A stretch of 64,000 nucleotides of DNA, taken from assembly GCA_964647025.1 (NCBI GenBank), contig CAZYFU010000010.1, positions 10,047-74,046 of the forward strand, written 5' to 3'. The position numbers and the translations under genes were made by a program. The notes beneath the pieces are model-generated. The model searched no databases. It was not told the DNA's origin and worked only from the letters and a program-made list of their open reading frames with translations. This DNA comes from an uncultured Myxococcales bacterium (GTDB taxonomy: Bacteria > Myxococcota_A > Polyangia > Fen-1088). Positions 55,537 through 58,524 of the stretch are shown here, one piece after another. Position 1 is the stretch's first letter. Every line of letters starts with the position of its first letter.

Positions 55537-58524
55537 GTGAAGGCGCGCGCTGGTTGTGTCCGCAATCACGGATCTGCATTCGTGGGCTTGGCCGTGGTCC
55601 AAGCCGTCCTGGCCGTCGCCTGCGGCGGCCTGAGCGACAAGCCCCGGGCGTTTTCCGTCGCTGAGATTCGCATCAACGAAGTGGTCAGCCAGAACCAAGG
55701 CGTGTGGGTCGACGAGGCCGGCGAGACCGACGACTACGTCGAGCTCATCAACGTCGGCAAGGAGCCCCTCGACCTCGGGGAGTACCTGCTGCGGGACTCG
55801 TCGCGCACGGTGCCGCTGCCGAGGGGCATGCTGAAGCCGAATCAGATTGTCTTGTTGTGGGCCGACGGACAGCCCGAGCAGGGACCGAACCACCTGCGGC
55901 TCAAGATCGACGCCGACGGCGAGGCGCTGGAGCTGATTCGCGCCGGCGTGGTCGTGGACCGCGTGGAGGTCCCGGCCTTGGCCGCGCACCATGCCTACCA
56001 GCGCATCCCCGACGGGACCGGAGCCTTCAGCGACTGTGGTTGGGCCACGCCCGAGCGCGAGAACGGATCCCGTTGCGGTCCTCCGAACACGCCAGAGCTT
56101 CCCGAGGATACGCACTTCGCTGCCTATGCCTGGCCCTCGCCTTGGCCCGCCCGGCCGCAGCCGCTCATGCTCACCGAGCTGGCCTTGCGAGCGGCTGGCT
56201 TCATCGAAGTGCTCAACACCGCCGCCACCGCCGTCGATCTGTCGACCTTCGAGCTTCGTGTCGCGCCTCACAGGGTGGGAGATCCCTGGCCGACCGCCAC
56301 CGACGGCGCCGGGCTCCCCTGGCCGATGCCCACGCTCGCCAGCGGCCAGCGCGCGGTGGTCAGCCTGACCGACGCGGATTTGGTGGCCGTCGCAGCAACA
56401 GGGCGCTTCGAAGGCGTGGTGACCCTCTGGTCGCTCACCGACGGCGCCGCCGTGGACCGGGCAGACTTCTCGTACTATCCCGAGGGCGCAGCGCTGGCGC
56501 GCGTGCCCGATCCTGACGGCGCCTTTCGATTCTGTGTCGCCCCGTCGCCTGGAGCGCCGAACGATGGCTGCGTGGCGCTGCCCTCGCGTCCCGTGGGCGA
56601 TCACCTGCGCGCGCTATCCACGCCGAACGACTTCGCCGCGCTGGCAGCCAGGCGAGGCGACGTGGGCGAATCCGCCGTCGAGTTCGTCATCGACATGACC
56701 TCGGGCGACGTGGTCGCGCTGCTCAATTCGGTCCATTGGGACATCCACTACAGTTTCGTCCGCGAGCACATCCAGGAAGAAGAGCACGTGGATCGTTGCA
56801 GTCCTGACGGGCGGCAGATCTTCAACGCCGGCTGGTACTACTTCAGCTCGACCGAGTACTTCCGCGTGGAGGGGCGACGCTATTTGCTCGGCACGCTGGT
56901 GAAGTACGCGGGTTCGAACCTGCACACGGTCGAGTTCACCCCCGGCGACGTCATCAGCCCCGCGCAGATGCTGCACGCCTTCTACTCGGTCCTGCGTCAC
57001 GTGGACAATCCCACGGCATGGGCCCTGCGACCGCAGGACTCGAGCCAGGTCGAGAGGATGAAGGAGATCGAGGGGCAGGTCCCCATCGTGGACACCAACG
57101 CCCCATTCCGGGGGCTGACCTTCCAGCCGCTGGTACCCACCGTGGGCTACGGGACGCTTCGCTACGTGGATGCCGATGCCATCGAGGCGGCCCATCTCGG
57201 TCCTCGCGACATCCTGGTCACCAACCGCGTGCCGTATGCCATTCCCGTGGTGGCCGGCCTAATCACCGAGGCGTTCCAGACGCCCCTGTCGCACGTCAAT
57301 GTCCTAAGTCGCGGCCGAGGAACGCCAAACATGGCGCTCGAGAACGCCCGCGCCGACGCTCGCGTGCAGGCCCTGCTCGGCAAGTTGGTTCGGCTGGAGG
57401 TTCGAGGGGCCGACTTCCTGTTGGCCGAAGCCGATCCCGCCGAGGCACTCGCGTTCTGGGACGCACACAAGCCCGAGGGACCGGCCGCGATTCCGCGGCT
57501 CGACACCAGCGTGCGTGGCCTCGTGTCGCTCGACGGGCGCGGGATCGAGGACACGCCCTCGGTCGGGAGCAAGGCGGCGCAGTTGGCCGAGCTCGGGCGT
57601 ATCCAGCTGTGTTCACCGTCCGCGGCCGATGCCCCGGAGCCGCGGATTCCCACGGGGGCCTTCGCGATTCCCTTCGCACACTCGCTGGAGCACTTCGAGC
57701 GCAGCGGTGCCAATGCACGCCTGGAAGAGTTGCGCCAGGATCCGGGCTTCCAGGCCGATCCGGCGGTACGCGAGGCGGGGCTTGGCCTGGTCCAGGCCGA
57801 CATCCTGTCGGCTGCCGTGGACGCGGAGTTGCTCGCGTCGGTTCGGGAACGAATCAATGCCACCTGGCCCGGCCAGCGTGTACGGTTCCGCAGCAGCAGC
57901 AACACCGAGGACCTGCCGGAATTCAACGGCGCCGGCCTCTATACTTCTGAAGGGATTGACTGGGACGCCTCGTACGACGAGCTGGCCACCGCGATCCGCA
58001 CCGTGTGGGCCAGCCTGTGGACGCCCCGGGCCTACGCCGAGCGCGAGTACTACAACATCGACCAGAGCGGGGTAGCCATGGCGGTTTTGGTGCACGAGGC
58101 ATTCTCGTCGGAACGAGCCAACGGCGTGGCCATCAGCCGCGACATCCTCGAACCATCCCGGGGCGACAAGTTCTACATCAACGCGCAGGTGGGCGAGGCC
58201 GCCGTGACGAACCCCGCGCCCGGCGTGGCGAGCGACGAGTTCACCTACTCGCTGTCGCGCTCTCCGCACATCGAGATGCGTTCGGTGAGCAGCCTGAACC
58301 GCGGGGTGCCCGTGTTGTCCGTCAGCGAGGTCTACGTGGTGGCCTGCAGCCTGGAGCGGATCCACGAGCACTTCCGACAGCTCATCGACCCCGAGCAGAA
58401 GAATGCCTGGTTCGCGATGGACATCGAGTGGAAGCTGATGGGGCCGCAGAGGCAACTGGTGGTCAAGCAGGCGCGGCCGTACTCGTTCGGGGAGGATGCG
58501 CCGGTCGGGTGGTGTGATCTTTGA
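55537..58524 (+). CDS. exported/lipoprotein multidomain protein: two lamin-tail domains + unknown domain + phosphohistidine (PEP-utilisers mobile) domain + C-terminal PPDK_N ATP-grasp domain (glucan-water-dikinase-like permuted order)
   Basis: GTG start. Signal peptide with lipobox-like LAVACGG. LTD1 SVAEIRINEVVSQNQGVWVDEAGETDDYVELINVGKEPLDLGEYLL. LTD2 LMLTELALRAAGFIEVLNTAATAVDLSTFELRV. His domain GPRDILVTNRVPYAIPVVAGLITEAFQTPLSHVNVLSRGRGTPNM. ATP-grasp SVGSKAAQLAELG...RVRFRSSSNTEDLPEFNGAGLYTS...QVGEAAVTN. Confidence 0.75.
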   Translation: MKARAGCVRNHGSAFVGLAVVQAVLAVACGGLSDKPRAFSVAEIRINEVVSQNQGVWVDEAGETDDYVELINVGKEPLDLGEYLLRDSSRTVPLPRGMLKPNQIVLLWADGQPEQGPNHLRLKIDADGEALELIRAGVVVDRVEVPALAAHHAYQRIPDGTGAFSDCGWATPERENGSRCGPPNTPELPEDTHFAAYAWPSPWPARPQPLMLTELALRAAGFIEVLNTAATAVDLSTFELRVAPHRVGDPWPTATDGAGLPWPMPTLASGQRAVVSLTDADLVAVAATGRFEGVVTLWSLTDGAAVDRADFSYYPEGAALARVPDPDGAFRFCVAPSPGAPNDGCVALPSRPVGDHLRALSTPNDFAALAARRGDVGESAVEFVIDMTSGDVVALLNSVHWDIHYSFVREHIQEEEHVDRCSPDGRQIFNAGWYYFSSTEYFRVEGRRYLLGTLVKYAGSNLHTVEFTPGDVISPAQMLHAFYSVLRHVDNPTAWALRPQDSSQVERMKEIEGQVPIVDTNAPFRGLTFQPLVPTVGYGTLRYVDADAIEAAHLGPRDILVTNRVPYAIPVVAGLITEAFQTPLSHVNVLSRGRGTPNMALENARADARVQALLGKLVRLEVRGADFLLAEADPAEALAFWDAHKPEGPAAIPRLDTSVRGLVSLDGRGIEDTPSVGSKAAQLAELGRIQLCSPSAADAPEPRIPTGAFAIPFAHSLEHFERSGANARLEELRQDPGFQADPAVREAGLGLVQADILSAAVDAELLASVRERINATWPGQRVRFRSSSNTEDLPEFNGAGLYTSEGIDWDASYDELATAIRTVWASLWTPRAYAEREYYNIDQSGVAMAVLVHEAFSSERANGVAISRDILEPSRGDKFYINAQVGEAAVTNPAPGVASDEFTYSLSRSPHIEMRSVSSLNRGVPVLSVSEVYVVACSLERIHEHFRQLIDPEQKNAWFAMDIEWKLMGPQRQLVVKQARPYSFGEDAPVGWCDL

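Follow-up and report, generated by a model that had tools for sequence, protein, structure and literature searches.

Lamin-Tail Domains Joined to a GWD/PWD-Like Predicted Dikinase Core in a Putative Lipoprotein of a Myxococcales Bacterium

Introduction

The dikinases that make up the PEPS/PPDK/GWD/RPH superfamily are regarded as enzymes that consume ATP inside the cell, and neither the periplasm nor the surroundings of Gram-negative cells are known to have an established ATP pool. The plant and algal members GWD (EC 2.7.9.4) and PWD (EC 2.7.9.5) consist of N-terminal non-catalytic modules followed by a phosphohistidine (pHis) domain and then by an ATP-grasp domain of the PPDK_N type, the same order as in the protein described here; no experimental structure has been solved for them (PMC12892837). 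Lamin-tail domains (LTDs) in bacteria are typically carried by secreted or membrane-associated phosphoesterases (PMC6085458). In those of the type of the ExeM nuclease (Shewanella), an N-terminal signal and an LTD precede an enzyme of phosphate chemistry, and the LTD possibly serves in surface or membrane targeting (PMC6085458). There is also precedent for a signal-peptide-bearing enzyme that depends on extracytoplasmic ATP (PMC10799422; bioRxiv 10.64898/2026.03.22.713542); it has an unrelated fold and chemistry (nucleotidyl transfer to Lys) and offers an analogy only. Searches of the literature on LTD–dikinase fusions, exported bacterial water dikinases and myxobacterial dikinase lipoproteins yielded nothing on the family presented below, which we define from one gene within a stretch of 64,000 nucleotides from an uncultured Myxococcales bacterium (the window).

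Results

Gene and N-Terminal Domains

The reading frame is a real gene, as an earlier sequence-only reading had proposed: its third-position GC is 0.85, its product is 100% identical to the 980-aa protein P0001, and more than 300 homologues were found. P0001 derives from the start used by gene callers, an alternative GTG 15 codons further downstream (55582). The longer start at 55537 supplies a K/R-rich n-region, and this extension is shared by the 82%-identical homologue P0003 ('VKENARC...'); no obvious Shine-Dalgarno sequence was seen upstream of either start. The AF2 model of the full-length protein has a pLDDT of 91.2 and a pTM of 0.85. The features of the gene and its product are collected in table 1.

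Table 1. Features of the gene and its product, with positions in the window
Feature	Residues (aa)	Position	Strand	Basis or detail
Whole gene	995 aa	55537..58524	+	GTG start; LTD-LTD-Ndom-pHis-ATPgrasp, predicted lipoprotein
Predicted signal peptide with lipobox, MKARAGCVRNHGSAFVGLAVVQAVLAVA before the Cys, +2 Gly	1-29	55537..55623	+	Read from sequence
LTD1, including the conserved Cys167...Cys180 loop	41-183	55657..56085	+	PF00932, Foldseek
LTD2, divergent, including the Cys333...Cys345 loop	205-348	56149..56580	+	hhalign to LTD1
Family-specific alpha/beta domain (Ndom), presumed partner of the His domain for acceptor binding	350-528	56584..57120	+	
Swivelling phosphohistidine domain	529-645	57121..57471	+	Structure searches
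Codon of His586, predicted phospho-carrier, motif TEAFQTPLSHVNVLSRGRGTPN	586	57292..57294	+	Translation check
C-terminal PPDK_N-type ATP-grasp nucleotide-binding domain	660-985	57514..58491	+	PF01326

Both of the LTDs that had been read from the sequence were recovered. LTD1 is matched by PF00932 above the gathering score (aa 41-145, E 1.2e-13, 51.8 bits vs 34.3) and by the Ig fold of lamin A/C in Foldseek (1ifr, E 2.6e-4), and its C167 and C180 are invariant among 115 homologues. LTD2 gives a sub-threshold LTD match in Pfam (E 0.075) and was assigned by its homology to LTD1: hhalign of the two sub-alignments returned an E value of 1.5e-17 and a probability of 98.9%, with the Cys loop inside the alignment, and the domain forms a beta-sandwich in the AF2 model. 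The unassigned region that follows, previously put at about 270 aa, measures about 180 aa. Pfam returned no match to it, neither from GWD nor from any other relative, at E<=10, and a fold search of the PDB none except via the adjoining His domain, yet its sub-model has a pLDDT of 92, and the conservation of four of its residues (H404, F407, Y441 and R447) reaches 90% or more among 136 diverse relatives. From its position and conservation we presume that this domain holds the acceptor site.

The Phosphohistidine and ATP-Grasp Domains

The sequence-only reading had placed a PEP-utilisers His domain in front of the ATP-grasp domain. The phosphohistidine fold and an invariant His586 bear this out, but the sequence itself does not match PF00391. 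Only one Pfam model touches the region, GWD1_pHisD (PF22973), with 15.1 bits (E 0.017; gathering score 27); among 72 relatives it matched 13 (E<=0.1; best 7.9e-5) and PF00391 matched one. On the isolated His region, PF00391 gave no match at E<=10. A gene of conventional order (PPDK_N plus PF00391, without a signal peptide) in the same window provided an internal control, and this paralogue matches PF00391 with E 2.7e-14. The domain was likewise not picked up by the full-length profile against PDB sequences and was found by structure searches alone, with RPH as the top match; its fold class is common to PF00391-type His domains despite the missing sequence match. His586 lines up with the 'TSHAAIV' histidine of PEPS and is in register with that of 'LSHVSVRARN' in GWD fragments, and the motif around it is invariant in 115 close homologues.

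The ATP-grasp domain is matched by PF01326 at aa 674-984 (E 3.8e-23, 82.7 bits vs a gathering score of 27). In Foldseek it resembles the ATP-grasp domains of RPH, HpeI, PEPS and PPDK (E 1e-13 to 1e-7; best RPH), and a profile search against the PDB retrieved PEPS 8a8e (E 3e-13). Its motifs are GSKAAQL (K679), RSSSNTEDL (R785-L793), GAGLYTS (798-804), DIEWK (E964) and KQAR (Q978, R980), of which K679, R785, E964, Q978 and R980 are assigned roles at the nucleotide or Mg after the PPDK literature. A loss of the catalytic His or of nucleotide-binding residues, looked for in the alignments, was not found: H586 (115/115 close homologues), K679, R785/S786/S787/N789/E791/D792, G798-L801/Y802/S804, E964, Q978 and R980 are invariant in the 115 close homologues and, across 136 distant ones, conserved to 90% or more. 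The GWD/PWD-like order, with a pHis fold at aa 529-645 ahead of PPDK_N at aa 674-984 and with catalytic motifs intact, is confirmed.

Export Signal, Cysteines, and Charge

The N-terminus has the layout of a lipoprotein signal, with K2/R4/R9 followed by AFVGLAVVQAVLAVA and then C29; the h-region has 15 residues. It should be noted that the signal-peptide and lipobox calls come from our own heuristic, a lipobox plus hydrophobic-stretch test, and not from SignalP/LipoP; the 995-aa protein shows all the features it uses (positive n-region, hydrophobic h-region, lipobox [LVI][ASTVI][GAS]C). Lipobox and hydrophobic stretch were also found in 93 of 115 close homologues, so that the lipoprotein signal read earlier is present and conserved, and the remainder mostly represent truncated gene calls or near-lipoboxes. 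A hydrophobic N-terminus recurs in 84 of 97 full-length distant relatives, and the modules fused to the core across the family (LTD, FN3, Calx-beta, CarboxypepD_reg) are all of extracytoplasmic types; export is predicted to be a property of the whole family. The signal segment has a low pLDDT in the AF2 model, with a helix at aa 17-27. As Gly follows the predicted acylated Cys29 at position +2, the outer membrane or cell surface is the probable destination. Export by Tat of a pre-charged folded enzyme was considered and rejected, as a twin-arginine motif is missing from the signal. The alternative of a cytoplasm-facing protein, raised in the sequence-only reading, appears very unlikely in view of the positive n-region, the h-region, the lipobox and the exclusively extracytoplasmic types of accessory domain.

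The mature protein has eight cysteines, each of them conserved, which co-occur as the pairs 167-180, 333-345, 421-692 and 937-993, suggesting four probable disulfides, the pairing being derived from co-occurrence and not from distances in the model. A strongly acidic character marks the two LTDs as well as the mature protein as a whole (net -47; family mean -56), which weakens the earlier idea that eDNA is the target of phosphorylation.

Distribution, Annotation, and Genomic Context

The core module spans at least 949 clusters (50% identity, E<1e-30) and is present in at least 593 species genomes, mostly of Myxococcota, with further carriers in the Bacteroidota, Bdellovibrionota, Bradymonadia and Desulfobacterota. 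Many relatives are short forms of about 650 aa without any polymer-binding module. Cultured carriers include Sorangium So ce strains and Polyangium jinanense, and short forms occur in Cystobacter fuscus and Pyxidicoccus. Source annotations of the relatives are generic or read "PEP synthase", 'phosphoenolpyruvate synthase' or 'pyruvate, water dikinase'. The latter two names are wrong for the family, and the PEP-synthase naming is a mis-annotation because there is no TIM barrel, the order is reversed, PF00391 is missing and scores against the NCBIfam equivalogs for PEPS/PPDK are low (60.8 vs 598 and 60.2 vs 739.75 bits). The RPH equivalog (NF041857) scores 40.7 bits vs a cut-off of 999. Conserved neighbours, which the earlier reading had suggested surveying, were not seen at 34 loci of the LTD form: no neighbour recurs there, and the genes flanking this one in the window never do. 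PADLOC gave no defence-system match.

Discussion

Domain content and arrangement, the folds, the retained catalytic motifs and the family-wide export signal together describe a large, cross-phylum family that combines a full catalytic apparatus with consistent predicted export and is mis-annotated in databases; the analysis corrects the labels 'phosphoenolpyruvate synthase' and 'pyruvate, water dikinase'. If the export prediction is right, a source of ATP (or of another donor) outside Gram-negative cells needs explaining, predatory and polymer-degrading bacteria would phosphorylate extracellular material in a way so far unrecognised, and GWD/PWD would gain a bacterial, structurally tractable relative.

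With moderate confidence, we favor a reading of the protein as an extracytoplasmic dikinase that would transfer phosphate from ATP via His586 to an acceptor, using a GWD/PWD-like three-domain 'X, water dikinase' core. The scheme that we infer extends to the dikinase chemistry, the use of His586 as carrier, the acceptor role of Ndom, the kind of acceptor and the source of ATP. The protein would be exported by Sec/Lol as a lipoprotein acylated at Cys29, and its C-terminal ATP-grasp domain would bind Mg-ATP; the beta-phosphate would pass to His586 on the swivelling domain, with release of AMP and transfer of the gamma-phosphate to water or phosphate. The phosphorylated His domain would then swing to Ndom (H404, F407, Y441, R447), where an extracytoplasmic acceptor would receive the phosphate on a hydroxyl or comparable group. 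The acidic LTD pair may provide spacing or targeting and so keep the enzyme on a surface or on an insoluble, non-anionic polymer, and ATP might come by leakage from lysed prey, kin or the producer itself. A bolder version, tentative and on balance rather doubtful, makes the protein the founding member of widespread extracytoplasmic polymer kinases, counterparts of the starch dikinases that use released ATP (e.g., from lysed prey). Their target would be an insoluble, non-anionic polymer outside the cell, with glucan of prey or plants, cellulose, chitin, peptidoglycan and the bacterium's own exopolysaccharide as candidates, and phosphorylation would, if this is true, loosen or mark it to be degraded or remodelled.

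The acceptor could instead be a small molecule (antibiotic, signal or xenobiotic), inactivated or activated by phosphorylation in the periplasm or at the surface in the manner of RPH or of the relatives that phosphorylate phenols or flavonoids, with the LTDs as mere spacers. This would fit the rank of RPH at the top of the structure matches for the ATP-grasp and His domains, the additional match to HpeI (Rhodococcus), the compact Ndom that resembles a ligand-binding domain, and the many short relatives. We nevertheless consider it unlikely, since both the order of the domains and the pHis model point to GWD/PWD, the NCBIfam equivalogs for RPH and PigC/RedH stay far under their cut-offs, and the fusions to LTD, FN3, Calx-beta and CarboxypepD_reg better suit enzymes of surfaces or polymers; the ATP problem, moreover, would be unchanged. 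External ATP would not be needed if the exported protein used none in vivo and ran the chemistry in reverse, or drew on PPi or polyphosphate as donor, in the service of phosphate scavenging or nucleotide salvage. Phosphate might, for instance, move from a phosphorylated polymer or metabolite through His586 to AMP/Pi. Dikinase reactions are reversible, as established for PPDK, and a weakly matching Phytase-like secreted gene lies downstream at some loci of short-form paralogues. That match is below the gathering score and was not seen at LTD-form loci, however, and the water dikinases (PEPS, GWD, RPH) are effectively irreversible; the complete ATP/Mg motif set is kept as in forward-acting enzymes, which makes a reverse-running enzyme quite unlikely.

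ATP would also be plentiful if the protein worked in the cytoplasm of other cells, as a delivered effector or toxin passed on by outer-membrane exchange, vesicles or predation. Myxobacteria exchange lipoproteins between cells and also pack them into vesicles, and predatory lineages (Myxococcota, Bradymonadia, Bdellovibrionota) are enriched among the carriers of the family. Yet non-predatory Bacteroidota and Desulfobacterota carry it as well, neither an adjoining immunity gene nor a polymorphic-toxin organisation was present at the surveyed loci, PADLOC found nothing, and four probable disulfides within a multidomain build of 100 kDa disfavor membrane translocation, so that we regard delivery as distinctly improbable. 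An ordinary cytoplasmic dikinase, whose hydrophobic stretch is an artefact of the start codon or an anchor facing the cytoplasm, could be argued from the start disputed between callers (55537 vs 55582) and the lack of an obvious Shine-Dalgarno sequence at both. The h-region and lipobox are kept with either start, however, signal peptides recur among distant relatives beyond the 93 of 115 homologues with a lipobox, and even an uncleaved signal would, by the positive-inside rule, leave most of the protein outside. Together with accessory domains exclusively of extracytoplasmic types and the conservation of eight out of eight mature cysteines, this renders the lack of export highly improbable, conservation having largely refuted it.

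The extracytoplasmic dikinase that we favor differs in part from each of the systems it resembles. With PEPS/PPDK it shares a homologous ATP-grasp domain, with matching motif positions (K, R, E, Q and R), and a swivelling His carrier, but it lacks their PEP/pyruvate TIM-barrel domain. The sequence-only reading had ATP-grasp first and His last in PEPS, PPDK and RPH alike. This holds for RPH (PDB 5hv1/5fbs), where ATP-grasp, RIF-binding domain and His domain follow one another (PMC4844700); in PEPS/PPDK the His domain is central, and the true difference is therefore that the partner domains are swapped around a central swivel. RPH is, in addition, cytoplasmic, unlike our predicted exported protein. 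Compared with ExeM-type enzymes, whose catalytic domains are hydrolases, it would be a phosphate-adding dikinase, with LTDs that are duplicated and strongly acidic. GWD and PWD are plastidial, whereas this protein is bacterial and predicted to be exported as a lipoprotein; the CBM45/CBM20 starch-binding modules of GWD/PWD were not found in it, its N-terminal domains being LTDs only, the redox motif CFATC of GWD is absent from it, and by score it falls below the threshold for membership in GWD1_pHisD. Plant GWD/PWD were compared as fragments of at most 100 aa, which speak to motif register only and not to the region upstream of the His domain. Within these fragments the catalytic His of GWD, in an 'LSHV(S/N)V' context, is in register with His586, and those of PWD share the ATP-grasp motifs 'RSSxNxEDL...AGLYxS...VWASL' (37% identity over 65 aa, hhalign E 2e-11). 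Taken together, the pHis model, the register of the His and the shared 'GAGLYxS' motif make the kinship of the core lean to GWD/PWD.

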